A stretch of 64,000 nt of DNA, from the NCBI GenBank assembly GCA_964516425.1, contig CAZFAM010000004.1:8364-72363 (forward strand), given 5' to 3'. The DNA is from an uncultured Bacteroidales bacterium. Lineage in GTDB: Bacteria > Bacillota_I > Bacilli_A > ML615J-28 > CAG-698. The notes under the pieces are model-generated. The model worked only from the letters and a program-made list of their open reading frames with translations. It searched no databases and had not been told where the DNA came from. A program made the position numbers and the translations under genes. Within the stretch, counting starts at the first letter, position 1, and each line of letters starts with the position of its first letter. Below are positions 36,070 to 50,223 of this stretch, piece by piece.

Positions 36070-39000
36070 CTAACTTAATAAATATTTTAAATCCTTATCT
36101 GACAACTTTTCAATCTTATCATCAGCGGAAATTAATGTATCAGCTATATCCTTTTTTATAGCTTGCAATTCAATAACTTTTTGTTCAATTGAATCTTGAC
36201 ATATAATTTTAATTACTTGAACTATATTTTTTTGTCCAATTCTATGGGCACGATCGGTAGCTTGATTTTCTGCCGCAACATTCCACCATGGGTCTAAATG
36301 AATGACAATATCTGCACCTACTAAATTTAATCCAGTCCCTCCTGCTTTTAAAGAACATAAAAAGACTTTTAAATTATCATCTTCATTAAAAGAAGTTGCC
36401 ATTCGCATTCTTTCATTGGCAGGCGTTTGCCCTGTTAATACACAATAATTAATATTTAATTCTTGTAACATCTGTTCAATTTTAGGGAAAGCAGATGTAA
36501 ATTGACTGAATATCAAAAGTTTATGACCTTCACAAATAAATTGTTCCATTAATTCTTTTAGCATTTCATTTTTACAACTATTGCCTTTATATGAATCAAT
36601 ATATAAAGAAGGATCAACACATGCTTGTCTTAAACGAGTTAAGCAAGCTAAAATATCAATTTTACTTTGACTACTTTTAATAATTTCTCTTGTTCTTAAC
36701 AATTCTGATTCATATATCTTTCTTTGATCATCACCCATTCTCGCATAATAAATATTCTCAACTTTTTTAGGTAATGACTTTAAAACATTTTCTTTTGTTC
36801 TTCGTAAAACAAAAGGTGTTATTTTTTTAATTAAATTATTAATTGTTTCGGGATCTTTTTCCACAACATTACGTTCGTATTTTGATTTAAAATCTTTAAA
36901 TTTATATAAATAAGAAGGCATTAAGAAATCAAAAATACTCCATAAATCTAATACACTATTTTCAATTGGTGTTCCTGTCAATACAAAACGATTTACAGAA
37001 TTAATCTTTTTAACCGATTGTGCTTTTAAAGTGTTATGATTTTTAATATATTGTGCTTCATCTAAAATCATATATCTAAATAACAATTTTTGATAGTAAT
37101 CTAAATCGTTACGCAAAGAATCATAAGATGTAATGTATATAACTTTCTTTTTTGCTTCTATTGCTTCTATTATTGTTTTACGATTAATATTTAATCCATC
37201 AATTGCTTGTACTTGATCATCAGGACTCCATTTTTTAAACTCATTAACCCAGTTATATACTAAACTTTTTGGACAAACAATTAATGATGGTAGTGCTGTT
37301 TGATCACCTTTGATAACCGATATAATTTCTAGTGTTTTTCCTAAGCCCATATCATCAGCTATAATACCGGAAAATCCATATTTAATTAATGTTTGGATCC
37401 ATTTATATGCTTCTATTTGATAATCTCGCATTACATTTTGCAAGCTTTCATCAACTGCATATTCACTAGTTTTATAATTTTTAATATCATTAAGCATTTG
37501 TTTCAAATAAGAATCCGTTTCAATTTTGACTAACGAATCGGCATCACCTATAACTTTTAAACTTTGATATAAAGGTTTGGATTGTGTTTCTTGTAATTTG
37601 TTAGTATTTAAATCGAATTCTTCAATTGTGGATAAAAACTTTTCTCCATCATTTTTATCAATTTCTAATATTGTATTATCTTTAAGTTTAACATATTTAA
37701 CTTTTTTCTTTAAACCACTAATAATAGCTTTTAATTCATCTGGCGAATATTTTAAATCAGAAAATGCAATATCAAGCATTCCTGTTTTGTAACTTAATTT
37801 AGCAGTTGGTTTAGTAAATTTCTTAATTTGCATTTTAGTTAAGGCTTCTGAAAGAAATACATCTGCATATTTTTTTAATTCTGTTAAATCTGCTTTTAAA
37901 AAACTCGTAACCTCTTCAATTGTACTAAGTTTATTATCTTTAAAACCAATATTATTAATAATAGAATTATATTTAACAAGTTTTTTAGATAAATATGATA
38001 TTTCATTAGCATGATCTAATGTAGTTTCTTTAGTATCTAAATAATATTTAGAATTTAATGTAATCTCATCATTTTCATAATTAAAATACGATTGTATTTT
38101 TAATTCTTTTAAAGGATTATTTTTTTTATATTCTTCATCAGCTGTAATTACATCATAAAAACGAGAATATATTTCTTGTGCAAAGCGTTTTTTAATTAGT
38201 GAGAAATTAAATTTCTTTTCATTAAATAAAAATATTTGTAAAGCACGTAATTCTTGATTTCCTGATATTGTATATAAAAAGCCATTATATCCTAAATAAT
38301 TGTGTACGTAACCTTCTAAAATAAAGAAACTATTAACATCATCTTCAAATAATAAGAAGTCGCCTTTAATCTTCATTTTCAAATCATATTGCTCATCTGT
38401 AATAAATAATCGATATAAATTATCTTGATAAAAAATGTTAATATAATCATTTTGATATATTTGCATTATTTTATCCACAAAAGAATGAGTAGCACAACAT
38501 GACCTATTATCTTTAGTTAAACACATACGATAAGAAGAAATTAATAATTGTATTAAATCACGACTTTTTTGATCAAATGAATCAAAATTATGATTAAATG
38601 TAAAAGTTTTTGAGTAACTAAAATTTGTTTTGTTTTCAATATTTAATAGCAATTCATCTATTCTTTTAACAACATATTTCTTTTCTTTACCAATTTTAAA
38701 ATTAACGTAGATATCATCTTTTTCTATTCTAATATATGGTTCTAATTGCACATCTCTAATAGGGATTATATCTTCATGTTTTTGAATTTGCCTTAATACT
38801 CGATCTAGTTTCTCATTTACTATTTTTCTATTTTTGGCAAGTTCTTTTTCTTGATAGTGTTTCACATTTTTATCAATCAATTGTATTAAATCATCATCAT
38901 ATAATATATTAGGAATTTCATGATTATTAATTTTTTCAATCATATATATTAAATGAGGACATAAATATTTTTCTTGATAGCACATTTCACATTGAAAATC

Positions 39001-39240
39001 TATAACTTTATTAAAATTACTTTCTTTATAATCTCCTTCAACAATCAAAGTCATTATCGGCTCTTCAAAAATTGACTTAGGAATATAAAATGTGTATACA
39101 ATACGAATACTATTCATATCCACCGCTATTTCTTGTTTAGTGGAAACTATTTCTATAAATTTATCACTATCTAAATAATTACATATACGATTATTGTAAT
39201 AATCATTCATTTTATTTTCATAAACTATTACTGTTTTCAT
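36070..39240 (-). CDS. SNF2/SWI2 family ATPase with N-terminal degenerate SWIM finger; start probably ATG 39240
   Basis: ADDMGLGKT, LDEAQYIKN, LTGTPIEN, GTGLNL, QATDRAHRIGQ; CEMC..CPH finger. Confidence 0.9.
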   Translation of the reverse strand: MKTVIVYENKMNDYYNNRICNYLDSDKFIEIVSTKQEIAVDMNSIRIVYTFYIPKSIFEEPIMTLIVEGDYKESNFNKVIDFQCEMCYQEKYLCPHLIYMIEKINNHEIPNILYDDDLIQLIDKNVKHYQEKELAKNRKIVNEKLDRVLRQIQKHEDIIPIRDVQLEPYIRIEKDDIYVNFKIGKEKKYVVKRIDELLLNIENKTNFSYSKTFTFNHNFDSFDQKSRDLIQLLISSYRMCLTKDNRSCCATHSFVDKIMQIYQNDYINIFYQDNLYRLFITDEQYDLKMKIKGDFLLFEDDVNSFFILEGYVHNYLGYNGFLYTISGNQELRALQIFLFNEKKFNFSLIKKRFAQEIYSRFYDVITADEEYKKNNPLKELKIQSYFNYENDEITLNSKYYLDTKETTLDHANEISYLSKKLVKYNSIINNIGFKDNKLSTIEEVTSFLKADLTELKKYADVFLSEALTKMQIKKFTKPTAKLSYKTGMLDIAFSDLKYSPDELKAIISGLKKKVKYVKLKDNTILEIDKNDGEKFLSTIEEFDLNTNKLQETQSKPLYQSLKVIGDADSLVKIETDSYLKQMLNDIKNYKTSEYAVDESLQNVMRDYQIEAYKWIQTLIKYGFSGIIADDMGLGKTLEIISVIKGDQTALPSLIVCPKSLVYNWVNEFKKWSPDDQVQAIDGLNINRKTIIEAIEAKKKVIYITSYDSLRNDLDYYQKLLFRYMILDEAQYIKNHNTLKAQSVKKINSVNRFVLTGTPIENSVLDLWSIFDFLMPSYLYKFKDFKSKYERNVVEKDPETINNLIKKITPFVLRRTKENVLKSLPKKVENIYYARMGDDQRKIYESELLRTREIIKSSQSKIDILACLTRLRQACVDPSLYIDSYKGNSCKNEMLKELMEQFICEGHKLLIFSQFTSAFPKIEQMLQELNINYCVLTGQTPANERMRMATSFNEDDNLKVFLCSLKAGGTGLNLVGADIVIHLDPWWNVAAENQATDRAHRIGQKNIVQVIKIICQDSIEQKVIELQAIKKDIADTLISADDKIEKLSDKDLKYLLS

Positions 39241-39241
39241 A

Positions 39242-40639
39242 TTATTGCACCACCGGTAATATATTATTTTCATTTAAATAAGATTTAAAGAAACGTATTG
39301 CTTCATAATTGTAATAATAATAGTATTTTTCTATTTCGCGATACATAAAAAATAAAATATACTTTCCATTACGCAAATTATGTAATTTAATAGTTAATTC
39401 TTTTGTATATTTATGATCATATTTATAATGAGTTGACAATTGGCTTCTCAATTCATTTTGATAAATAAATAATAAATCATTATTATATTCTTCTTTTAAA
39501 ACATCATATAATGAATCGATAGAACGAAACTCATCACAGTTATTTAAAATAACTGAAACCTTATTTTCTTGTTTGAAAAAATCCCAAATTGCATCTTTAT
39601 CATAATAATTATTGAAGAAATATAAATATATTTGGTCAGTAAACATATCTTTTAATAAATAAAATTTTTGTAAATCTTTATTTGTAACAATTAATGATAT
39701 TAAATCGTATAATTTTGATTGATTATCAAGTTCTTTTCTAGATTTAATATAGTAATATAGTGTATCAAAAACCAAATTTTTTTGATTATCAACAATTGAT
39801 TTTAATTCATTAAAATTTTTAATATCGTATAAATATTTTGCGTACCTTCCCACTTTATATTTATTTCTTTTGATTTTATCATAATTAACAGTTTTTAAAT
39901 CAAGATTATAAACTCCAATTGCCTTGCTAGAGCTAACATCAGCATAATAACTTTCTATAACAAAAGCACAATTAGACAAAAAACTAAATAATCTTTCATT
40001 AACTTTTTCATAATCAATGTATTCAACAATATCCTTTAACAAAGTAAAATTATGTTCTTCTTTCAATTGATTTACTAGATTATAAAAAGCATCACTATTA
40101 CAATCAATTTTTTCAAAAGCACTTAAAACATATAACGAAGCATTAGTATCATTCCTATATGAAAAGGCATTTAAAGCTTTATATAATTGTATTATGTAAT
40201 CTAACTTTAGTGTTTCATCACTTTCTTTTAATATTTCTTTAATTAATTGCTTAAGTGCATTTTCAAATAGAGGCGTATTTTCTTCATTAATAATTAATAT
40301 TCCATTCATTGCTCTAATCAATTTTAAAAGCATTGGTGATTTTTCAGAGTATAATGTATTATAATTATTCAACAAATAATATAACACAGCTGCAGCATGT
40401 TTACATGGAAAGTCACATTCACAAGTACATGATGTTTCTAGCTTATTATTTTCTATTTTAATGTTCACACTATAATTACGATTGCCTTTAACAATAGCAA
40501 CCACATTATTATTTGATAATATAGTAACATTTTTAACAAATCCGCGTTCAAAATAATTTTGTCCTCTTTCCGCAATTGTATAACGAAAATGCTTTACTAT
40601 TTTTTCATTTGTTAATTCATTAAAACTTGATAATTGCAT
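39242..40639 (-). CDS. SWIM zinc-finger protein
   Basis: RGQNYF..G.V, Y.V.I, CTCECDFPCKHAAAVL. Confidence 0.85.
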   Translation of the reverse strand: MQLSSFNELTNEKIVKHFRYTIAERGQNYFERGFVKNVTILSNNNVVAIVKGNRNYSVNIKIENNKLETSCTCECDFPCKHAAAVLYYLLNNYNTLYSEKSPMLLKLIRAMNGILIINEENTPLFENALKQLIKEILKESDETLKLDYIIQLYKALNAFSYRNDTNASLYVLSAFEKIDCNSDAFYNLVNQLKEEHNFTLLKDIVEYIDYEKVNERLFSFLSNCAFVIESYYADVSSSKAIGVYNLDLKTVNYDKIKRNKYKVGRYAKYLYDIKNFNELKSIVDNQKNLVFDTLYYYIKSRKELDNQSKLYDLISLIVTNKDLQKFYLLKDMFTDQIYLYFFNNYYDKDAIWDFFKQENKVSVILNNCDEFRSIDSLYDVLKEEYNNDLLFIYQNELRSQLSTHYKYDHKYTKELTIKLHNLRNGKYILFFMYREIEKYYYYYNYEAIRFFKSYLNENNILPVVQ

Positions 40640-40793
40640 AAAAATACCCCTTTAATAATTTATTTTATCATTTTTCTTACATAATTACAACAATTATTAA
40701 TAAGTTAAAAAGAATATTTTATTTATGTAAAAAAACGAAAATATTTGTCAAAAAACAATGAAAAAACTTTTTTATTTTCATAAAACAATTTCT

Positions 40794-40822
40794 TTGACAC
40801 TCATTATATCTTTTGATATAAT
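40794..40822 (+). promoter_or_regulatory. Consensus SigA promoter of nrdD with a possible single NrdR-like box in the spacer
   Basis: TTGACA (40794-40799), N17, TG-A-TATAAT (40817-40822); CATTATATCTTTTG at 40802-40815 only partly matches the NrdR consensus (box itself low confidence). Confidence 0.75.
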
Positions 40823-40847
40823 ATACAAATATAAAGGAGGCTAAAGA

Positions 40848-43214
40848 ATGTTAAATGTTAAAAAGAGAGATGGAAACATTGTACCTTTTGATTTGAAAAA
40901 AATTGAAAATGCTATTGAGAAAGCATTTAATTCTGTTAATAATTCTTATACTCATGATGTCATTGAATTATTAGCATTACGTGTTACTGCAAGTTTTAAC
41001 ACAAAAATTGAAAACAATACAATATCTGTGGAAGATATTCAAGATAACGTAGAAATTGTATTAATCCAATCTGGTTATGTAGATGTTGCAAAATCATTTA
41101 TTTTATATCGTAAGCAACATGAAAATATCAGAAATGCAAAAGCTACATATCTTGATTATAAAGATACAGTTGATAATTATTTACAAATTAATGATTGGAG
41201 AGTAAAAGAAAACTCTACTGTTACATATTCAGTTGGAGGATTAATTCTTTCAAACTCTGGGGCAATTACAGCAAACTATTGGTTATCTGAAATTTATGAT
41301 AATGAAATAGCTCAAGCACATAAAAATGCGGATATCCACATTCATGACCTTTCAATGTTAACAGGCTATTGTGCTGGATGGTCTTTAAAACAATTAATAA
41401 AAGAAGGTCTAGGTGGAGTACCTGGAAAAATCACTTCTTCTCCTGCCTCACATCTTTCTACATTATGTAATCAAATGACTAATTTCTTAGGTATTATGCA
41501 AAATGAATGGGCTGGCGCTCAAGCATTTTCATCATTTGATACTTATTTAGCTCCATTTGTGAAAAAAGATAATTTAACATATAAAGAAGTTAAACAATGC
41601 ATTCAATCTTTTATTTATGGTGTCAATACTCCATCTAGATGGGGAACTCAAGCCCCTTTCACAAATATCACTTTAGACTGGACAGTTCCTAATGATATGG
41701 CTGAATTAAATGCTATTGTAGGTGGAGTTGAACAAAACTTTAAATATAAAGATTGTGTTCAAGAAATGGCTATGATTAATAAAGCATTTATTGAAATCAT
41801 GATTGAAGGAGATGCCAATGGTAGAGGATTCCAATACCCAATTCCTACATATTCAATCACAAAAGATTTTGATTGGAGTGATACAGAGAATAACCGTTTA
41901 CTATTTGAAATGACAGCTAAATATGGTACGCCATATTTCTCTAATTATATTAATAGTGATATGGAACCAAGTGATGTTAGAAGTATGTGCTGCCGTTTAC
42001 GTTTAGATTTACGTGAATTACGTAAAAAGTCTGGTGGCTTCTTTGGAAGTGGTGAATCAACTGGTTCTGTAGGTGTTGTTACAATTAACTTACCTAAAAT
42101 TGCTTTCCTTTCGCAAAATAAAGATGAATTTTATAATCGTTTAGAAAAAATGATGAATATTGCAGCTCGCAGTTTAAAAATTAAACGTAATGTTATTACT
42201 AAATTTTTAGATGCCGGATTATATCCTTATACTAAGAGATATTTAGGAACATTTAACAATCACTTCTCAACTATTGGTTTAGTTGGTATGAATGAAGCTT
42301 GTTTAAATGCTAAATGGTTGCAAAAAGATTTAACTAATAAAGAATCTCAAGAATTTGCGAAAGATGTTTTAAACTTTATGCGTAATAAATTATCTGATTA
42401 CCAAGAACAATATGGTGATTTATATAATTTAGAGGCTACACCAGCAGAATCAACATCATATCGTTTAGCAAAACATGATAAAAAGAATTATCCAAGTATT
42501 ATTACAGCAAGTGAAGATAACAAAACACCTTATTACACTAATAGTTCACATCTTCCTGTTGGTTATACTTCAGATATTTTTGCAGCTTTAGATATTCAAG
42601 ATGAATTACAAACATTATACACTTCAGGAACTGTATTCCATGCGTTCTTAGGTCAAAAACTACCTAGTTGGCAAGCTTGTGCAACTTTAGTTAAAAAAAT
42701 TGCGGAAAACTATCGTCTTCCATATTACACTATTTCACCAACTTACTCTGTATGTCCAAAGCATGGATATATCGCAGGTGAAGAATATACTTGTCCTACA
42801 TGTGGTGAAAAAACTGAAGTATATAGTCGTATAACTGGTTACTATCGTCCTGTACAAAATTGGAATGATGGTAAAGCTGAGGAATTTAAAAATCGTAAAG
42901 AATATGATATTGAACATTCAATTCTAAAGAAAAAACAAGAATTACATAATGATTGTGAAGAAAAATCACAAAATGAAGAATTAAAAGAAATATTATTATT
43001 CACTTCACCAACATGCCCTAATTGCAAAATGGCAAAAATGCTTTTAGATAAGGCCAATATTAATTATAAACAAATTGATGCTTATGAAAACAAAGATTTA
43101 GCTATTAAATTTAATGTTCAAAAAGCACCAACTATGTTTGTTCCTAATAATGATTCTTATGATGTATATAGTAATGTTAGTGATATTAAAAAATATATAG
43201 AGGGATTAAAGTAA
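40848..43214 (+). CDS. nrdD: Class III anaerobic ribonucleoside-triphosphate reductase with ATP cone and C-terminal glutaredoxin-like domain
   Basis: VKKRDG..VPFD ATP cone; HIHDL; SMCCRL; YSRITGYYRPV glycyl-radical motif; CPKH/CPTC; terminal FTSPTCPNCKMAK. Confidence 0.93.
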   Translation: MLNVKKRDGNIVPFDLKKIENAIEKAFNSVNNSYTHDVIELLALRVTASFNTKIENNTISVEDIQDNVEIVLIQSGYVDVAKSFILYRKQHENIRNAKATYLDYKDTVDNYLQINDWRVKENSTVTYSVGGLILSNSGAITANYWLSEIYDNEIAQAHKNADIHIHDLSMLTGYCAGWSLKQLIKEGLGGVPGKITSSPASHLSTLCNQMTNFLGIMQNEWAGAQAFSSFDTYLAPFVKKDNLTYKEVKQCIQSFIYGVNTPSRWGTQAPFTNITLDWTVPNDMAELNAIVGGVEQNFKYKDCVQEMAMINKAFIEIMIEGDANGRGFQYPIPTYSITKDFDWSDTENNRLLFEMTAKYGTPYFSNYINSDMEPSDVRSMCCRLRLDLRELRKKSGGFFGSGESTGSVGVVTINLPKIAFLSQNKDEFYNRLEKMMNIAARSLKIKRNVITKFLDAGLYPYTKRYLGTFNNHFSTIGLVGMNEACLNAKWLQKDLTNKESQEFAKDVLNFMRNKLSDYQEQYGDLYNLEATPAESTSYRLAKHDKKNYPSIITASEDNKTPYYTNSSHLPVGYTSDIFAALDIQDELQTLYTSGTVFHAFLGQKLPSWQACATLVKKIAENYRLPYYTISPTYSVCPKHGYIAGEEYTCPTCGEKTEVYSRITGYYRPVQNWNDGKAEEFKNRKEYDIEHSILKKKQELHNDCEEKSQNEELKEILLFTSPTCPNCKMAKMLLDKANINYKQIDAYENKDLAIKFNVQKAPTMFVPNNDSYDVYSNVSDIKKYIEGLK

Positions 43215-44122
43215 TGTACGATATAATTATTATCGGTGGAGGAGCAGCAGGGATGACTGCTGCTCTTTATTCACTTAGAAGTGGAAAAACTGTTTTATTA
43301 TTAGAAAAGGAAAATGTGGGAGGACAAATATCTCAGTCACCTCGTGTTGAAAATTTTCCTTCCATTAAAGAAATTGCGGGAAGTGAATTTTCAGATAACC
43401 TTTTTGAACAAATTATTGATTTAGGTGCTCAATTTGAATTGGAAAATGTTTTAAATGTTACTAAGAAACAAAATATATTTACTGTTAAGACTGACTATAA
43501 TAGTTATGAAGCTAAAGCCATCATTTTAGCAACAGGTGTAAAGCATCGTCATATTGGGGTTGATGGTGAAGAGGATTTAATTGGCAAAGGTTTATCATAT
43601 TGTGCAGTTTGTGATGGAGCATTTTATTCTGGAGAAGATGTTGCATTAATTGGTGATGCTAATACAGCTCTACAATATGCTCTTCTACTTTCAAATTATT
43701 GTAAAAAAGTATATTTATGTACTTTATTTGATAAATTTTTTGGAGATGACACTTTAATTAAAAGTGTACTAAAAAGAACCAATATTGAAATCATTCATAA
43801 CATTTCATTAAAAGAATTTAAAAAAACTGATAGATTAGAAGGTTTAGTTTTTGAAAATACCATTGATAAAAACACAATCGAACTAGATGTAAAAGGATGT
43901 TTTATTGCTATTGGACAAATTCCTGAAAATGAAGCATTTCAAAATATTGTGGATATTGATAATAATGGTTACTTTATTGCGGATGAAAATTTAGCAACAA
44001 AAACGGAAGGCGTATTTGTAGCTGGAGATTGTCGAGCAAAAAAAATAAGACAACTGACAACAGCTGTAGCCGATGGTGCTATAGCAAGTGTTGGTGCAGT
44101 TGCCTATATTGATAAACTTTAA
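43214..44122 (+). CDS. trxB: Thioredoxin reductase
   Basis: IIGGGAAG, ATG, CAVCDG, FVAGD; TAATG overlap with nrdD. Confidence 0.9.
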   Translation: MYDIIIIGGGAAGMTAALYSLRSGKTVLLLEKENVGGQISQSPRVENFPSIKEIAGSEFSDNLFEQIIDLGAQFELENVLNVTKKQNIFTVKTDYNSYEAKAIILATGVKHRHIGVDGEEDLIGKGLSYCAVCDGAFYSGEDVALIGDANTALQYALLLSNYCKKVYLCTLFDKFFGDDTLIKSVLKRTNIEIIHNISLKEFKKTDRLEGLVFENTIDKNTIELDVKGCFIAIGQIPENEAFQNIVDIDNNGYFIADENLATKTEGVFVAGDCRAKKIRQLTTAVADGAIASVGAVAYIDKL

Positions 44123-44820
44123 TATCCTCTTAATTTTACATTAGTAATATATTTTTCAAGAAGGCACTTATATTCAAGTGCTTTTTTTTCATTCACTTCA
44201 TGTAGATTATTTTTAATACACGTTCCTTTGTCCACAAATTTTTGTAAATACAATGTTTTGGCTCCTTGTAATAATATTCCTAAATTGTGAATACTTTCTT
44301 CATTATGAAATTCTTTAACTAGTGTAGTTCGAAATTCATAGTCAATATGATTTTCTTTTAAATAATTAATTGTTTCTTCTACTTTTTTTACTAAATTATA
44401 ATTACTAATACCACTTGTTTCAAGATAACAATCTAAACTATTTTTAACATCCATAGCCACATAATCAATTAATTTTTCATTAACTAATGTTTGAATTACT
44501 GTTAAATTAGTGCCATTAGTATCTAACTTTATTAAATATCCCAATTGTTTAATTTCTTTAATACGCTCAATTAATGTAGGCAGTAGTGTAGGTTCTCCAC
44601 CAGTAATAACAACGGCATCCAAAATGCCTTGTCTTTTTTTAAAATATTCTAAATATTCATCTTTATTTAGTGTTTGAAAAGAATCATAATTTAATACTAA
44701 AGATGCATTATGACAAAATGGACAACGAAAATTACATTTACCTGTAAATAATGTTGCACTTACTTTCCCATCAAAATCAACTAATGATACTTTTTCTATT
44801 CCATAAAACTCAGTTTTCAT
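44119..44820 (-). CDS. nrdG: Anaerobic RNR activating radical SAM enzyme
   Basis: SLVDFDG, CNFRCPFCHN, VITGGEPTL, KLDTNG, EFRTT. Confidence 0.9.
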   Translation of the reverse strand: MKTEFYGIEKVSLVDFDGKVSATLFTGKCNFRCPFCHNASLVLNYDSFQTLNKDEYLEYFKKRQGILDAVVITGGEPTLLPTLIERIKEIKQLGYLIKLDTNGTNLTVIQTLVNEKLIDYVAMDVKNSLDCYLETSGISNYNLVKKVEETINYLKENHIDYEFRTTLVKEFHNEESIHNLGILLQGAKTLYLQKFVDKGTCIKNNLHEVNEKKALEYKCLLEKYITNVKLRGY

Positions 44821-44822
44821 TC

Positions 44823-47800
44823 CTATAACTTCCTATATTTCTTATCAAATATTGAATATAAATAAAGATTAATTGGCTTATCACTTTTACTTCTAATATA
44901 TTCTTTATAACCAGTTAACTGTTTATCATATGCTTCATCATCAATATGTTTTAATTTATAATCAATAATATCAATATGATTATCATATTCAATTAACAAA
45001 TCAATGCTACCATTTTTTTGATTTATTTGATCATAAAAAGCATACTCTTTATATATAGTTCCTTTTGTTTTATTTTTTAGTAAATCACTATTTAAAAAAT
45101 CAATTATATAATGATGATATTTAGATTCAAGATTAATGATATTAAAATCAGGTTTAATAAAATCGATTCTTTCTAATGCATTATGTAATTTAGTACCTAA
45201 CTCTAAAACTTTTGTTACATCATTAGATATTAATTCATTAATTTTTTTAGAAAATGAACTCTTTTTAATTTCCTCTTTTTTAATATTTAATTCTTGGATT
45301 GCGATATTTTGATTATTTTCCTTAATTGAAGCAATATTAGCTTGGGTTATTTCTCCATTTAAACTAACATAATGGTTTAATTGTTCTTCTGTTATTGGAT
45401 AGTTCTTTAAACCATCTAAATATGTTTCCACAAAATATTTAAATGATGATGGCGTCAAAGATGGTTTTAGTGTTTCATCTTTAGACACAAATATAATTTG
45501 TTCGCGCGCTCTAGTTAAAGCTACATAAAATACTCGAACCTCTTCACTTATTGTTTCTTGAATAGCTTTGTAATTAAGAATTTTTTTCATTATCGTATCA
45601 TGCTTGCCATTATCTACACTTGGAATAATAATACCATACTTATTATCAAATAAAAAATCTGTTTTAATATCTTCTAAATTGAAACGATTGTTTAAACCAG
45701 GAAAATAGCAAATACCAAACTCCAATCCTTTAGATGTGTGAATAGTCATAATTTTAACAGCATCATCAAACGATGTTAAATTATTTTTAAATTTAATAGA
45801 TAATGAGCTATCCATTACATCATCTAAATAATCCACAAATTGCTTTAAATCATAGCCAATATTAGATAACGTTTCTCCAAGTTTTGCGAAGAACTCTAAA
45901 TGTACTAATATTTTTTGGGTTTCGGTAATTAATCCCGACTTATCAACGATGGCAAATTTATCATTAATACGGTATATAATTTCTTTTATTGATATACTAT
46001 TAATATCTTTTCTTAAATCTTTAATCTTACTATATAATTCTGTATCATAATAACTATTATTACAATATATTTTATAAATTTCATCATCTGAAAACATATA
46101 TAAATATGAACGTAAAATACTAATAAATTCATACTTTTCATTAATTGTGAAGTTTTCAATATTTGGTGTAATTAATAATTTTAAAATATTAATTATTATT
46201 TTTATATCATAATCATCATTTAAAGTTTCATCTTTAAACACCGTTAAAGGAATTTTAAAAATATTAAAAATGCGTTTATATAACTGAAAGTTATTACTTC
46301 TATCAATCAAGATTACAAAGTCACTATATCGTACATCTCGTGCTTCTTTACTATCTTTATCCATTATTTGAAAATGATTATCAACTTTATTTTTAATATC
46401 TTCCGCAATTAAATATGCTTCTATTTCCGCATCTAATAAACTTTGATTATCATTTTGATATGATAAAACATATGCCGTATGATTATAATTAGCATTTACA
46501 TTATTATAATCAATATTTCCAGCTTTCATTATATGGTCTTCAATATATGAAGCATCACCGACTTCTTTAGTCATGCATTTCATAAAAATATTATTTATAT
46601 CAGTAACGACCTCTTTGCGAGAACGGAAATTGTTTGTTAAATCAATTTTTATTCCTCCATTATGAACTTTATAATTATCATACTTTTCACGGAATAAATA
46701 AGGATTAGCTTTACGAAAACGATATATTGATTGTTTAATGTCACCAACCATATAAACATTATTATTCGCAATCAAATTAACAAAATATTCTTGTATATCT
46801 GATGTATCTTGATATTCATCAATCATGATCTCTTTAAATGAGTTTTGCAATTCCAATTTTATATCTTCATGCTCTTCCACAATTTTAATTGCCATTTTTG
46901 CAATATCATTAAATGTATAAGTATTAGTTTTATATTTAAATTCTAATACTTTTTGATCTAATTCATTAATAATACGAATAATTGTATTAATATTGTCTAT
47001 TGTGCTTGCAACTTGATTAATTTTTGTTTCTTTTGACTCACTACCAATATATTCTTTAATTTTTTTAATTTCATTTGTAATTGCTTCTTTAAATAATTTA
47101 GTATCTTCATCTGTATTATTTTTTAATCTTGGCAAATTTAAGTCTTTGCCAAAATTATGAATATCTTCCTTTTTGGTAATGAAGGTTGTTAAATAATTTT
47201 GAAAATCTGATAAATCTATATCATAGTTTTGTAAAGAATATTGGTATAGCTTTTGAATTTTTTGAATACTTATATTTTCAAATTCTTCATAATATTTTGT
47301 AATACTTGATGAATTTATAAAAGCATGGTTTGCAAAATACTTATCTTTATCAACTAATAAATCAAGTTTTTTATAAATATTTAAAAGCCCTTCTTTAATT
47401 ACTTTATCATCTTTAATACAATAATCAGTAATTAAACGTGCAAAATCTTGATTATTTTCCGAATATAAATTATCCATAATTTCATCTAATAATTTTGATA
47501 TTTGTAATGTATTTACATTATCATCCATTATTGAAACATTAGAATCAATATTTAAAATATAATGATATTTTTTAACTATGGATAAGCTAAAGCTATCAAA
47601 TGTGCAAATATAAGCATTTGTAAGTAAATCTATTTGATTATTCATCCCTGCTGCAAGAATTTTTTTCCTAATTCTTTCTTTCATTTCTTGACTTGCCGCA
47701 TTTGTAAATGTCAAAATCAATAGCTGGTTAACATTTATTCCTTGCTTTATTTTTTCAATTACACGTTCACTTAAAACAGCTGTCTTACCACTTCCAGCCC

Positions 47801-47864
47801 CCGCACTAACAATTATATTACTACCACTTTTATATATTGCTTGTTCTTGTTCTTGAGTCCACAT
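44823..47864 (-). CDS. addA: AddA helicase/nuclease (UvrD-like plus C-terminal PD-(D/E)XK nuclease)
   Basis: AGAGSGKT, IDEYQD, VGDIKQSIYRFR, TIHTSKGLEF, YVALTRA, GSIDLL..IIDYK..Q..GY. Confidence 0.9.
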   Translation of the reverse strand: MWTQEQEQAIYKSGSNIIVSAGAGSGKTAVLSERVIEKIKQGINVNQLLILTFTNAASQEMKERIRKKILAAGMNNQIDLLTNAYICTFDSFSLSIVKKYHYILNIDSNVSIMDDNVNTLQISKLLDEIMDNLYSENNQDFARLITDYCIKDDKVIKEGLLNIYKKLDLLVDKDKYFANHAFINSSSITKYYEEFENISIQKIQKLYQYSLQNYDIDLSDFQNYLTTFITKKEDIHNFGKDLNLPRLKNNTDEDTKLFKEAITNEIKKIKEYIGSESKETKINQVASTIDNINTIIRIINELDQKVLEFKYKTNTYTFNDIAKMAIKIVEEHEDIKLELQNSFKEIMIDEYQDTSDIQEYFVNLIANNNVYMVGDIKQSIYRFRKANPYLFREKYDNYKVHNGGIKIDLTNNFRSRKEVVTDINNIFMKCMTKEVGDASYIEDHIMKAGNIDYNNVNANYNHTAYVLSYQNDNQSLLDAEIEAYLIAEDIKNKVDNHFQIMDKDSKEARDVRYSDFVILIDRSNNFQLYKRIFNIFKIPLTVFKDETLNDDYDIKIIINILKLLITPNIENFTINEKYEFISILRSYLYMFSDDEIYKIYCNNSYYDTELYSKIKDLRKDINSISIKEIIYRINDKFAIVDKSGLITETQKILVHLEFFAKLGETLSNIGYDLKQFVDYLDDVMDSSLSIKFKNNLTSFDDAVKIMTIHTSKGLEFGICYFPGLNNRFNLEDIKTDFLFDNKYGIIIPSVDNGKHDTIMKKILNYKAIQETISEEVRVFYVALTRAREQIIFVSKDETLKPSLTPSSFKYFVETYLDGLKNYPITEEQLNHYVSLNGEITQANIASIKENNQNIAIQELNIKKEEIKKSSFSKKINELISNDVTKVLELGTKLHNALERIDFIKPDFNIINLESKYHHYIIDFLNSDLLKNKTKGTIYKEYAFYDQINQKNGSIDLLIEYDNHIDIIDYKLKHIDDEAYDKQLTGYKEYIRSKSDKPINLYLYSIFDKKYRKL

Positions 47865-47865
47865 T

Positions 47866-50223
47866 TTATTTGTACTCCTTTAAAAATGTTAAATCAGATG
47901 GTTTACTTAATTTTTTTAAATCTTTTGGTTGCATAAAACACAAGTCTTTATATTTACAAAAACGACAAGAAATGTTTTTATAATCAATTTGTTTAGGATT
48001 TATTGGGAAATCACCATTAATAATTTTATTTCCTGCTTCAATTATTTTCTTTTCCACTAAATGCTCTAAACACTCAATTTGTTCTTCCGTTAATACTTTA
48101 CTTCGAGAATCAAAAGTACCATCTTTTTTACGCTTTAATCCTTGAATTAATAAACTATTATCTTCTGTATTATCAAAATGAATACAATCTTCATTTATAT
48201 CTAATGTATAACCTTGAAGCTTTAAATATGCTTTTTTCTTTTCTAAATAATCTTCACTATCTTCGGCTTTAATTTCATTTTGTAAAATAGTTTGATAATA
48301 GAAACCAGTAACATACACATTTTTTAATTTTGAACGTTTTGATAAATAAATATAAATAGGTAATTGTAAATTCAAACCATATTTACAATTATTAATAGCC
48401 GTATCAATACTACCTGTTTTATAATCCACAATAGCAACATAAGTTTTATCACCTTGTTCATGATAAAACATTTTATCGATAATACCTGTAAATATAATTT
48501 TCACATTATCATTAATCTCTATATTTACCTCATGTTCATATGCCTGTGATTCATAATTAATATATTGAAGTTGCTCATTGATAGCGTTAATTATAAATTG
48601 TAATTCATTTTTTAGACGATTTAATAAAAATATTTCTTTATTATTTATAGTTACAAAATATTCATTTTGAGCTTTGGTAAATGATTTATCAAAATCAAAT
48701 CCTTCAATAAAAGCTTCTTCCAATACTTGATGAAAAACAGAACCAATTTTGGTGGCAAATTTATCTTCATAAATATTTAATTTTAATACTTTCTCAACAT
48801 AATAACTAAATGCACATTCATTATATTTATTTAAACTAGTATATGATAATTGTACTTGATTATGCATTTTCTCCTTTAACATTTCTTTATTTATTCCTTT
48901 AAAAGAATTATCGTAACTATCATATTCTTTTGTACTATATAATCCTAATAAAATAGATAATGTTTCATTATAACTACCATACTTCTTATAATCATCCAAT
49001 TTGTTATTTAACAAGTATTTATTATATTTATTTGAATAATTACTAATACTTTCTTTTTCTATAATCTTAGTCATATTATATTCATTAATTATCGTAGATG
49101 GTTGTAATATAGAAAAAGTGGAAGCAAGAGAATATGACATATATAAATGATTAATTGTGGATAATTTACTAATCACTTCTTCTTTTTCACTTTTATTTAT
49201 TTCAATTGTCGTACTTAAGCCAATTTGAGCCTTTAAATCATCTGACAAATAATCTTCATCACTTATAATTTTAGGAATATTACCTTGATTTAATCCCATT
49301 ACATATATATAATCATTATCACTAATAACTAAATTATTAAAGTTTTCTACTCTAACACTATTTTGATATTCTTTGTTAATGTATGTATGCTTTAAATCAT
49401 TTACAAGCAAATCATAAATATCTGAGAAATCTTTTCTAAATGTATATTGATTTAATATATTAATTAATTTTAGAGAAATTTCTTTATCATAATTATTTTG
49501 TAAAAATGTATCAACTGTATTATCTTTAACAGCATTTAAAAATTGTTTACCAATATTCGTATCATATAAAGAAGTAGTATTAGGAATAGTAATTGGTAAA
49601 TGATACATATCACTAAATACTTGTAATAAAAAATGATAATCATTTGTTATTCCAGTAATTTTAATATGATTTATATCTACGCCTTCGTTTATTTTTAAAA
49701 TTATATCATTTATCACACCATTTATTTCTTGTTCAATTGTTTTATATTCGTGAACTGGCATATCTTTTTTTATTACTAATTCTTGTCTTATAATATCTAC
49801 ATGATTTAATTGTTCTATACATTTTTGATATTTTTTTTCTATAACAGGATATCCCATAACAACAATATCAAATGTATTATAATAATTAATATTGTTATCC
49901 GCATTAATAAAATGATTATTAATTAAATCTTGTTTAATATTAGATAAAAAAGAAATTTTATCACAATCACTAACAACAAACATTGTATCTTGAAGAGCTT
50001 TTAAGTATTTTGTGGCAACATCAACACTTATATTATAACGTTTTGTCACATAATAAAGCATTTCTTTAGTAATTGAAAATGTCAATGAATCAAAAAACTG
50101 TTCTAGTGACATTAGTTTTATTTGATATAATTTTTTTTCATTATCAATACATTTCAATATTTCTTTTTGCATATAAAAGGGTGTAATAACTAATTTATTA
50201 TTTAAATAATTTAAATCATACAT
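47866..50223 (-). CDS. addB: AddB-like PD-(D/E)XK nuclease subunit with Fe-S staple
   Basis: SYTSL..Y.ECAF.YY, GIIDK, VDYKTG, LQLPIY, CRFCKYKDLC. Confidence 0.85.
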   Translation of the reverse strand: MYDLNYLNNKLVITPFYMQKEILKCIDNEKKLYQIKLMSLEQFFDSLTFSITKEMLYYVTKRYNISVDVATKYLKALQDTMFVVSDCDKISFLSNIKQDLINNHFINADNNINYYNTFDIVVMGYPVIEKKYQKCIEQLNHVDIIRQELVIKKDMPVHEYKTIEQEINGVINDIILKINEGVDINHIKITGITNDYHFLLQVFSDMYHLPITIPNTTSLYDTNIGKQFLNAVKDNTVDTFLQNNYDKEISLKLINILNQYTFRKDFSDIYDLLVNDLKHTYINKEYQNSVRVENFNNLVISDNDYIYVMGLNQGNIPKIISDEDYLSDDLKAQIGLSTTIEINKSEKEEVISKLSTINHLYMSYSLASTFSILQPSTIINEYNMTKIIEKESISNYSNKYNKYLLNNKLDDYKKYGSYNETLSILLGLYSTKEYDSYDNSFKGINKEMLKEKMHNQVQLSYTSLNKYNECAFSYYVEKVLKLNIYEDKFATKIGSVFHQVLEEAFIEGFDFDKSFTKAQNEYFVTINNKEIFLLNRLKNELQFIINAINEQLQYINYESQAYEHEVNIEINDNVKIIFTGIIDKMFYHEQGDKTYVAIVDYKTGSIDTAINNCKYGLNLQLPIYIYLSKRSKLKNVYVTGFYYQTILQNEIKAEDSEDYLEKKKAYLKLQGYTLDINEDCIHFDNTEDNSLLIQGLKRKKDGTFDSRSKVLTEEQIECLEHLVEKKIIEAGNKIINGDFPINPKQIDYKNISCRFCKYKDLCFMQPKDLKKLSKPSDLTFLKEYK

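Follow-up and report, generated by a model that had tools for sequence, protein, structure and literature searches.

What re-reduces the active site of an anaerobic ribonucleotide reductase (RNR) after each turnover, and where do the electrons come from? The question is raised by two overlapping genes in the genome of an uncultured Bacteroidales bacterium, placed by GTDB in Bacillota_I (Bacilli_A; ML615J-28; CAG-698). The DNA analysed, hereafter the window, is a stretch of 64,000 nucleotides from contig CAZFAM010000004.1 of assembly GCA_964516425.1 (positions 8,364 to 72,363, forward strand), and all coordinates below are those of the window. The first of the two genes encodes a class III RNR, NrdD, with a redoxin domain fused to its C-terminus; the second encodes a TrxB-like flavoprotein. 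An initial annotation had read the pair as a self-contained chain in which NADPH (reduced nicotinamide adenine dinucleotide phosphate) feeds TrxB, the fused redoxin and finally the active-site disulfide. On balance, we favour a redoxin-dependent class III RNR module in which electrons would pass from the flavoprotein through the tethered redoxin to the active-site disulfide, with a donor that is probably not NADPH.

A redoxin domain on a double-cysteine NrdD

Family profiles and aligned residues place the window enzyme among the double-cysteine class III RNRs. Its core (aa 121–686) matches Pfam NRDD with an E-value of 1e-192, and the NrdD hidden Markov models score over their curated cutoffs (PF13597, 642 bits against 26; TIGR02487, 528 against 326; NF006126, 1142 against 548). 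The finger loop reads SMCCRL at aa 379–384, as first annotated, and its C381-C382 pair aligns with C329/C330 of the Thermotoga maritima enzyme (4coi/4u3e), an NrdDh protein to which the window NrdD scores only 146 bits. The NrdD2 subtype of Wei (2014) is defined, as relayed in PMC4493059, by a third cysteine in the finger loop together with an active-site glutamate, with the methionine also present in some members. Since the third cysteine and the glutamate are both found, the window enzyme qualifies as NrdD2 on this residue-based definition.

The initial annotation had called the enzyme Neisseria bacilliformis-type, with the cysteine pair replacing an MGCR loop. The likeness stands for the NrdD2 residues and for the adjacent cysteines; it fails at the loop itself, which is MCCR with an invariant methionine rather than SCCR, the Met of the MGCR-type loop having been retained and overlooked. 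By the count of Burnim et al. (2022; PMC9669993), most double-cysteine class III enzymes (83%) have MCCR. In the same survey, the finger-loop Met is implicated in formate chemistry in Escherichia coli, MCCR enzymes hold the parts for either formate or thioredoxin, Met-containing forms look ancestral, and just small SCCR subclades are predicted to be thioredoxin-only. The signature of those subclades (Glu present, finger-loop Met absent, SCCR) differs from the S-M-C-C-R-L of the window. With the Met invariant and the parts for either reductant in place, the claim that thioredoxin acts instead of formate is not established.

The C-terminal domain is indeed a redoxin of thioredoxin fold with a CxxC pair. 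Its CPNC pair (aa 723–726) had been recognised correctly, and the domain passes the Pfam cutoffs for both Glutaredoxin (PF00462; 32.3 bits against 22.9, over aa 715–750 only) and Thioredoxin (29.5 bits against 23.5, aa 708–776). An AlphaFold2 model of aa 706–788, with a predicted local distance difference test score of 90.8, has a beta-alpha-beta-alpha-beta-beta-alpha fold of glutaredoxin/NrdH size. Searched with Foldseek, it returned thioredoxin and NrdH structures at template-modelling (TM) scores of 0.6–0.74, NrdH structures falling at 0.66–0.72, with no separation of thioredoxin, NrdH and glutaredoxin relatives. NrdH-redoxins are recognised by their CVQC and WSGFRP motifs, and the glutathione-binding features of glutaredoxins by TVP and GGxdD. 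The window domain has CPNC, no WSGFRP and no visible GG.D motif, and the context of its cis-proline is A-P-T; all NCBIfam redoxin equivalogs, the glutaredoxin ones included, stay far under cutoff (TIGR02194 NrdH, 22.9 bits against 85.75). With no equivalog near its cutoff and a fold search that does not discriminate, the domain therefore seems to represent its own type of small CxxC redoxin, distinct from NrdH and probably also from classical glutaredoxins.

The spread of the fusion was assessed by scanning GTDB, one genome per species, with a pattern for the redoxin domain. At least 600 stretches were returned, of which at least 593 are confirmed matches; fusion status was verified in the best 80 of these, to which all locus counts below refer. 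The redoxin forms the C-terminus of NrdD in 80/80. The nearest database relatives are hundreds of proteins of 786–794 aa with the same four-domain architecture, from metagenome-assembled genomes (MAGs) of uncultured 'Bacilli bacterium', which NCBI labels plainly as 'ribonucleoside triphosphate reductase'. When a library clustered at 50% identity was queried with the glycyl-radical domain plus redoxin, some 25–30 divergent clusters were matched through the redoxin, all of them carrying T-C-P-x-C and A/V-P-T. Full-length fused representatives at this clustering level are all of the MCCR+Glu type, in a search that was seeded from the window's clade. The hosts comprise gut and rumen Bacilli and Erysipelotrichaceae MAGs, Sphaerochaetaceae, and many Clostridia (Oscillospiraceae, Acutalibacteraceae, Christensenellales, Lachnospiraceae), together with two isolates, [Eubacterium] hominis and Acutalibacteraceae SVS042.

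RITGYYRP occurs in 80/80 loci, the CxxH...CxxC zinc pattern is conserved, and TCPNC and the cis-Pro are invariant. Wherever the open reading frame (ORF) of a locus covers the site, SMCCRLRL is identical, M380 thus being invariant, and TGYCAGW is identical bar one SGYCAGW; the active-site Glu (L[YF]NLEATP) is likewise kept, also in distant fused representatives. The linker between core and redoxin is conserved in neither length nor sequence. The same architecture with the same invariant residues in 80 loci puts these features far beyond chance, and invariant motifs on either side of a freely varying linker thus mark the fusion as an old, selected feature of one NrdD clade, not an assembly artefact.

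Some fused homologues carry large insertions (P0291, P0252, P0249, P0266 and the representatives of 1000–1600 aa, P0255–P0259, P0264 and P0290). In P0291, about 230 residues sit exactly between the M and the CC of MCCR, ending in THQ directly before CC; in P0252 and P0249 an insert at the same place of the finger loop ends in THN before the C. The apparent 'HQCCRL' of such representatives might suggest an origin from NrdD3 (QCCR), which we rejected, as the insertions lie at the M/CC junction, the underlying loop is MCCR and the Glu is present. Their flanking residues resemble the ends of inteins, and the insertions look like inteins placed at the catalytic cysteines, in which case the enzyme would be active only after splicing. 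Another homologue, P0352 (836 aa), is apparently a different RNR fusion, in which an NrdD ends in a radical-SAM region resembling NrdG; within its 271-residue tail, a CPWC is compatible with the cysteine motif of radical-SAM proteins.

The linked flavoprotein and its nucleotide site

A TrxB-like gene lies directly downstream of the fusion gene, on the same strand, in 65/80 loci, and further off in 3/80; this linkage spans Bacilli, Clostridia and other lineages. With nrdG found within 6 kb in 67/80 loci, clustering of the neighbouring ORFs left nrdD::redoxin, trxB-like and nrdG as the only conserved genes. The order proposed at the outset, from TrxB through the fused redoxin to the active-site disulfide, thereby gains comparative support. 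In the window itself, the TAATG junction was confirmed: the nrdD stop TAA (43212–43214) and the trxB-like ATG (43214–43216) have one base in common, at 43214. The second gene has its own Shine-Dalgarno sequence, GAGGGA, 9–14 nt 5' of the start, and no terminator was found between the two genes. Judging by these signals, the trxB-like gene is co-transcribed and translationally coupled with nrdD.

The TrxB-like protein is a low-Mr thioredoxin reductase (TrxR) homologue, whose best solved relative is the TrxR of Methanosarcina mazei (4zn0; E 9e-63, 215 bits). It aligns over its full length to TrxR structures, has the flavin adenine dinucleotide (FAD) motifs GGGAAG (aa 8–13) and GDCR (aa 271–274), and keeps the GKG/Phe features of thioredoxin binding; SYCAVCDG, which holds the CxxC disulfide, is invariant in 121/121 sequences. 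The pyridine-nucleotide site has fared differently. The pyrophosphate loop GGGNSA of 4zn0 is GDANTA in the window protein, and the 2'-phosphate motif VHRRDHLKA is CTLFDKFFG, so that GDANTALQ and VYLCTLFDKFF stand where the NADPH signatures GGGxxAxE and VxxxHRRDxxR would be expected. These are not private changes, GD[GA]N[TS]A and TLFD[KRH]F.F being found in 120/120 homologues at 65–95% identity. The protein scores 302.3 bits against the TIGR01292 TrxB equivalog, under the cutoff of 343.45, and its homologues are named 'FAD-dependent oxidoreductase' at NCBI. In the literature, TrxRs that do not use NADPH are told apart operationally by their lack of GxGxxA and HRRxxxR (PMC10880999; PMC5627308), and by this criterion the window protein is not an NADPH-dependent thioredoxin reductase (NTR). 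Because both signatures are replaced and the replacements are fixed in the clade, NADPH is an unlikely donor in this organism, and the first link of the annotated chain, from NADPH to TrxB, is not supported.

The reductases next to the fusion fall into three motif classes. Class A, with the TLFD motifs of the window, accounts for 37/80 loci. Class B has the canonical GGGxxA and HRRxxxR and is found in 13 adjacent loci, mostly of Oscillospiraceae-like Clostridia, with two more 1.4–2.8 kb away. In class C (11 loci: L035, L049, L050, L053, L056, L064, L066, L069 and L074–L076, with the TrxB-like ORF just downstream of nrdD), GGGNSALQE is kept and QNLP[YHF]L.TGE replaces HRRDxF.RGE. The second glycine of GxGxxA is G or A, alternating in class A only, which indicates relaxed constraint on dinucleotide binding there. 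The position of nrdG varies too: in class A loci it is usually downstream and convergent, in HRR and QNLP loci upstream of nrdD and co-directional with it. Two class A homologues picked by sequence alone (66–68% identity) both came right after an NrdD::redoxin gene, in metagenome contexts whose outer flanks are unlike those of the window.

In a neighbour-joining distance tree, which has no bootstrap and is indicative only, the nrdD-linked TrxBs group together, with the three solved NADPH-dependent TrxRs outside as outgroups. TLFD and QNLP each form a monophyletic group and the HRR forms a paraphyletic one, a pattern that suggests two events of loss or alteration of the nucleotide site inside a single dedicated lineage. 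The window reductase thus appears, on its sequence, to be an independent loss of NADPH signatures inside the nrdD-linked TrxB lineage.

A comparable loss is known from FFTR (6gna–6gnd), cyanobacterial FFTR/DTR (5j60) and TRi, all of which keep the TrxR fold, FAD and CxxC and have lost the NADPH signatures (PMC5627308, PMC8154056, PMC10880999). The TRi of Desulfovibrio vulgaris (GEGxxAxN, TQGK), reduced by neither NADPH nor NADH (PMC5627308), even has a loop that resembles the GD[GA]xxAxQ of the window's class. However, the replacement motif TLFD[KRH]F.F differs from theirs, the C-terminal aromatic tail of cyanobacterial FFTR is lacking, and there is no grouping by sequence with any of them. 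Membership of these groups was rejected on scores of 104–123 bits (clostridial FFTR, 123 for 6gnc and 109 for 6gna; cyanobacterial DTR, 122) against 215 for the NTR 4zn0.

The linker preceding the redoxin is richer in cysteine than the whole protein (3.9% against 1.8%), and in relatives its cysteines are often clustered as CxC, CC, CCCC or CxxC amid acidic residues. One or more cysteines occur in 36/38 TLFD-class loci (window included), 4/13 of the HRR class, 5/11 of the QNLP class and 1/12 of the loci lacking a linked TrxB. These cysteines might shuttle electrons, in the manner of the C-terminal pairs in class I/II RNRs, form a metal site, or simply reflect lineage.

Layout of the locus

The features on which the argument draws are collected in Table 1. 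The sigma-70 promoter lies 25 nt 5' of the nrdD start and is the sole perfect site within 40500–45000. The nrdG gene, a neighbour that the initial annotation had overlooked, is convergent to the trxB-like gene, their stop codons overlapping by 4 nt. On the same minus strand, addB and addA precede it (44119–50223 for the three genes), and as its start is 2 nt past the addA stop, nrdG appears, from this arrangement, to be co-transcribed with the AddAB helicase-nuclease genes. The nrdD and trxB-like genes are two overlapping plus-strand genes amid a long run of minus-strand genes, which is why the GC skew is positive only in their region.

Table 1. Positions of the features discussed, in window coordinates (aa, residue numbers of the encoded protein)
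Feature	Position	Strand	Basis
Sigma-70 consensus promoter, TTGACA, 17 nt spacer, TATAAT, extended TG	40794..40822	+	12/12 match
nrdD::redoxin fusion gene, 788 aa	40848..43214	+	ORF, Pfam, NCBIfam, structure alignment
ATP-cone, allosteric on/off domain, aa 3-92	40854..41123	+	Pfam PF03477, E 1e-23
C175, beta-A cysteine (= T. maritima C125), TGYCAGW motif	41370..41372	+	alignment to 4coi, motif position
Finger loop M380-C381-C382-R383, double-cysteine MCCR	41985..41996	+	motif class per PMC9669993
E529, active-site glutamate (= T. maritima E495), NLEATP motif	42432..42434	+	alignment to T. maritima NrdD
Zinc site of glycyl-radical domain, C636-x2-H639 ... C649-x2-C652	42753..42803	+	motif, CxxH...CxxC conserved
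Glycyl-radical motif R-I-T-G664-Y-Y	42828..42845	+	motif
Variable acidic linker, ~26 residues (about aa 687-712), single Cys C703	42906..42983	+	locus comparison
C-terminal thioredoxin-fold redoxin, 76 residues (about aa 713-788)	42984..43211	+	Pfam, AlphaFold2 model, Foldseek
Redox pair C723-P-N-C726	43014..43025	+	motif
cis-Pro motif A-P-T of redoxin	aa 760-762	+	motif
TrxB-like FAD-dependent disulfide reductase gene, 302 aa	43214..44122	+	profile matches, structure alignment, motifs
C130-A-V-C133 of TrxB-like protein	43601..43612	+	motif
GDANTA of TrxB-like protein	43652..43669	+	alignment to 4zn0
TLFDKFF of TrxB-like protein	43721..43741	+	alignment to 4zn0
nrdG, radical-SAM activase of NrdD	44119..44820	-	TIGR02495 NrdG2, 181 bits against cutoff 131

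Matches to the NrdR box consensus were not above chance, with none upstream of nrdD (leader 40640–40847), and no nrdR gene is visible within the 64-kb window; nrdD may be regulated by its ATP-cone alone. A scan of the window for cysteine motifs found no ferredoxin, flavodoxin or thioredoxin gene. On the other side of nrdD, two minus-strand genes that overlap by 32 nt occupy 36070–40639, one for a protein of 465 aa with a SWIM zinc finger and one for a helicase of the bacterial SNF2 family (1067 aa; domains SNF2_assoc, SNF2-rel_dom and Helicase_C). The pair sits between nrdD and a gene for a Dabb-domain protein. In the related contigs L081 and L082, only ~200 nt without any gene separate nrdD from the Dabb gene upstream of it, so the pair looks like an insertion in the window.

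Proposed electron route, precedents and rival explanations

In the module as we read it, NrdG, going by its family membership, would install the radical on G664, from where it would pass to a finger-loop cysteine (C381 or C382) and start the reduction of the ribonucleoside triphosphate. C175 and the other finger-loop cysteine would give two electrons, with E529 as proton relay, leaving an active-site disulfide; the residues are present, and we infer their chemistry by analogy with the N. bacilliformis NrdD. The redoxin, carried on the same polypeptide by a flexible acidic linker of ~26 residues, would use C723/C726 to re-reduce this disulfide, and would in turn be re-reduced by C130/C133 and the FAD of the flavoprotein. 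For the latter step, the argument comes from the translational coupling, the retained CxxC, the GKG/Phe features and the NrdH/TrxR precedent. For the chain from flavoprotein to redoxin to NrdD as a whole, we infer function from comparative evidence that is good: the fusion, the coupling of the genes and the conservation of the residues. The flavin, finally, would be reduced by a donor that, from the motifs that have been lost, is probably not NADPH; most plausible is a ferredoxin or flavodoxin of low potential, by the example of clostridial FFTR, with NADH less likely. To call such a chain self-contained was an overstatement, because the electron source of the flavoprotein is not encoded in the cluster. 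A formate route is possibly retained as well, because M380 is invariant.

Redoxin-dependent class III RNRs are already known from N. bacilliformis and Methanosarcina barkeri, and so is a functional glutaredoxin fused to a class I NrdB. Thioredoxin is the reductant of the double-cysteine N. bacilliformis NrdD (Wei 2014, as cited in PMC9669993 and PMC4493059). As far as these secondary accounts describe it, that enzyme is an NrdD2 with the same double finger-loop cysteine, beta-A cysteine and active-site Glu as the window enzyme, and its proposed active-site disulfide likewise receives electrons from a protein of thioredoxin fold, itself recycled by a flavoprotein. They also give it an SCCR loop without the Met, placement in RNRdb subclass NrdDh3, a free thioredoxin and an NADPH-dependent TrxR, whereas the window has MCCR with the Met, a covalently fused redoxin and a reductase without NADPH motifs. 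For the second precedent, the NrdD3 of M. barkeri, Wei et al. (2015) reportedly described an NrdH-like redoxin from the same operon together with a [4Fe-4S] ferredoxin:disulfide reductase, ferredoxin being the proposed source of electrons. This system shares with the window a dedicated small redoxin and an NADPH-independent disulfide reductase encoded with nrdD; it differs in its QCCR loop with neither Met nor Glu, in its separate redoxin and in its reductase, an iron-sulfur FTR-type enzyme rather than a TrxR-family flavoprotein.

The class Ib NrdH-redoxin of E. coli is recycled by TrxR, not by glutathione. There, too, a glutaredoxin-sized redoxin stands beside a TrxR-type flavoprotein and serves an RNR; unlike it, the window redoxin is fused, serves a class III enzyme and has CPNC rather than CVQC. 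Covalent attachment itself has a precedent in the Grx::ATP-cone::NrdB of Facklamia ignava, an RNR polypeptide bearing its own CxxC redoxin, for which experiments demonstrated the role of RNR reductant (PMC6187632). That enzyme, however, is of class I, and its redoxin is a glutathione-dependent glutaredoxin of CPYC type at the N-terminus of the radical-generating subunit (PMC6187632). Table S1 of the same paper lists, without analysis, a single RefSeq 'Glutaredoxin:NrdD', from Lachnospiraceae bacterium TWA4 (subclass NrdDd). We found no publication that covers how widely the fusion is spread, that it is confined to MCCR+Glu enzymes, or that a TrxB-like gene of several motif classes is linked to it; earlier mention in papers of the Stubbe laboratory is possible.

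The closest competitor to this reading keeps the chain and changes only its source, so that NADPH (or NADH) would still feed the TrxB-like protein through altered motifs that go on binding a pyridine nucleotide. The nearest solved relatives are indeed NADPH-dependent TrxRs (4zn0, 7aaw, 5uwy); GxGxxA survives, as GDGNTA, in about 60% of class A homologues; and low-Mr TrxRs that use NADH and lack HRR are known (PMC5627308). Moreover, the sister TrxBs of class B retain both NADPH motifs, and the ancestral gene pair was therefore, on the neighbour-joining tree, most likely NADPH-dependent. What makes this reading rather improbable for the window is the nature of the changes: of the three basic residues that contact the 2'-phosphate none is left, T, L, F and F standing there instead throughout the clade, the glycine of the pyrophosphate loop is freely swapped for alanine, the HRR positions have no acidic residue such as we would expect for NADH specificity, and the D. 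vulgaris TRi, with comparable changes, is reduced by neither nucleotide. Thus, by these motifs, the NADPH chain is plausible for organisms with the canonical HRR reductase, not for the window organism.

Two further explanations were weighed. In the first, formate would be the catalytic reductant and act, as in E. coli, by a thiosulfuranyl route through M380/C175; the only task of the redoxin and the TrxB-like protein would then be to hold the three active-site cysteines in the reduced state, for instance as repair following oxidation, or to regulate activity. The invariant M380, the capacity of MCCR enzymes for either reductant, the apparent ancestry of Met forms and the fusions without a linked reductase all fit this account. 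Yet the Glu, for which an essential part in reduction without formate has been proposed, is likewise invariant, a stoichiometric tethered redoxin kept across several lineages, usually with a coupled reductase, would be costly for occasional repair, and fused redoxins were found only on double-Cys enzymes with the Glu, albeit in a survey seeded from the window's clade; we regard the formate account as unlikely. Still less credit is due to a TrxB-like protein whose adjacency to nrdD has nothing specific to do with the redoxin, be it a general thioredoxin reductase or a YumC-type ferredoxin/flavodoxin reductase feeding NrdG. In uncultured Bacilli with small genomes, a single reductase may serve all clients, nrdG adjoins the gene, and a TrxB-annotated protein of Lactococcus lactis is a flavodoxin reductase needed for ribonucleotide reduction (PMC4626851). 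The YumC-type function was nevertheless rejected, as the CxxC is invariant, YumC-type FNRs lack it, and FNR structures score 63–76 bits against 215 for TrxRs. Against a general role, the TrxBs linked to nrdD make up a single clade that excludes the three NADPH-dependent outgroup TrxRs, and every class A homologue with an examined context directly follows an nrdD::redoxin gene.

Several observations weigh against a redoxin-dependent module fed by a donor other than NADPH. The motif loss speaks against NADPH yet names no other donor, and the flavoprotein scores higher with an NADPH-dependent enzyme (215 bits) than with proven ferredoxin-dependent ones (109–123 bits). The clustering of neighbours at the 80 loci revealed no conserved ferredoxin or flavodoxin gene near the fusion, nor a thioredoxin gene. 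The TrxB-like gene is absent within 6 kb of 12/80 fusions, so the reductase is not obligatorily linked; within the 64 kb seen here, it could as well be the cell's general thioredoxin reductase, not a dedicated one. To our knowledge, the double-cysteine class III enzymes assayed are SCCR and QCCR forms only, and we know of no assay of an MCCR+Glu or fused form. Lastly, with M380 invariant and this Met tied to formate chemistry by Burnim et al., formate could be the main reductant.

A broader interpretation may be offered, tentatively and as less likely than not. Anaerobic synthesis of deoxyribonucleoside triphosphates would in this lineage be wired to low-potential ferredoxin or flavodoxin, not to NADPH or formate, by flavin thioredoxin reductases (GD[GA]N[TS]A ... 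TLFD[KRH]F.F) that do without NAD(P)H, arose independently as a family so far overlooked, and are dedicated to the tethered redoxin. The Cys-rich acidic linker would act as a shuttle analogous to the C-terminal cysteine pairs of class I/II enzymes, and the three motif sets of the gene pair would record repeated switching of the donor.

For the majority double-cysteine class III RNRs, those with MCCR and Glu, a widespread natural fusion of such an enzyme with a redoxin, usually with a reductase gene next to it, is strong genomic evidence for a redoxin route. With the partners identified and their stoichiometry fixed, the fusion makes the question of the reductant directly testable for the largest double-cysteine group. 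The three reductase classes (canonical NADPH, TLFD and QNLP) suggest repeated re-plumbing of the electron source in gut anaerobes, and they bring new candidates to the few thioredoxin reductases known to work independently of NAD(P)H. As the hosts are abundant uncultured Bacilli and Clostridia of gut and rumen, the module bears on how fermentation is coupled to replication in these organisms.

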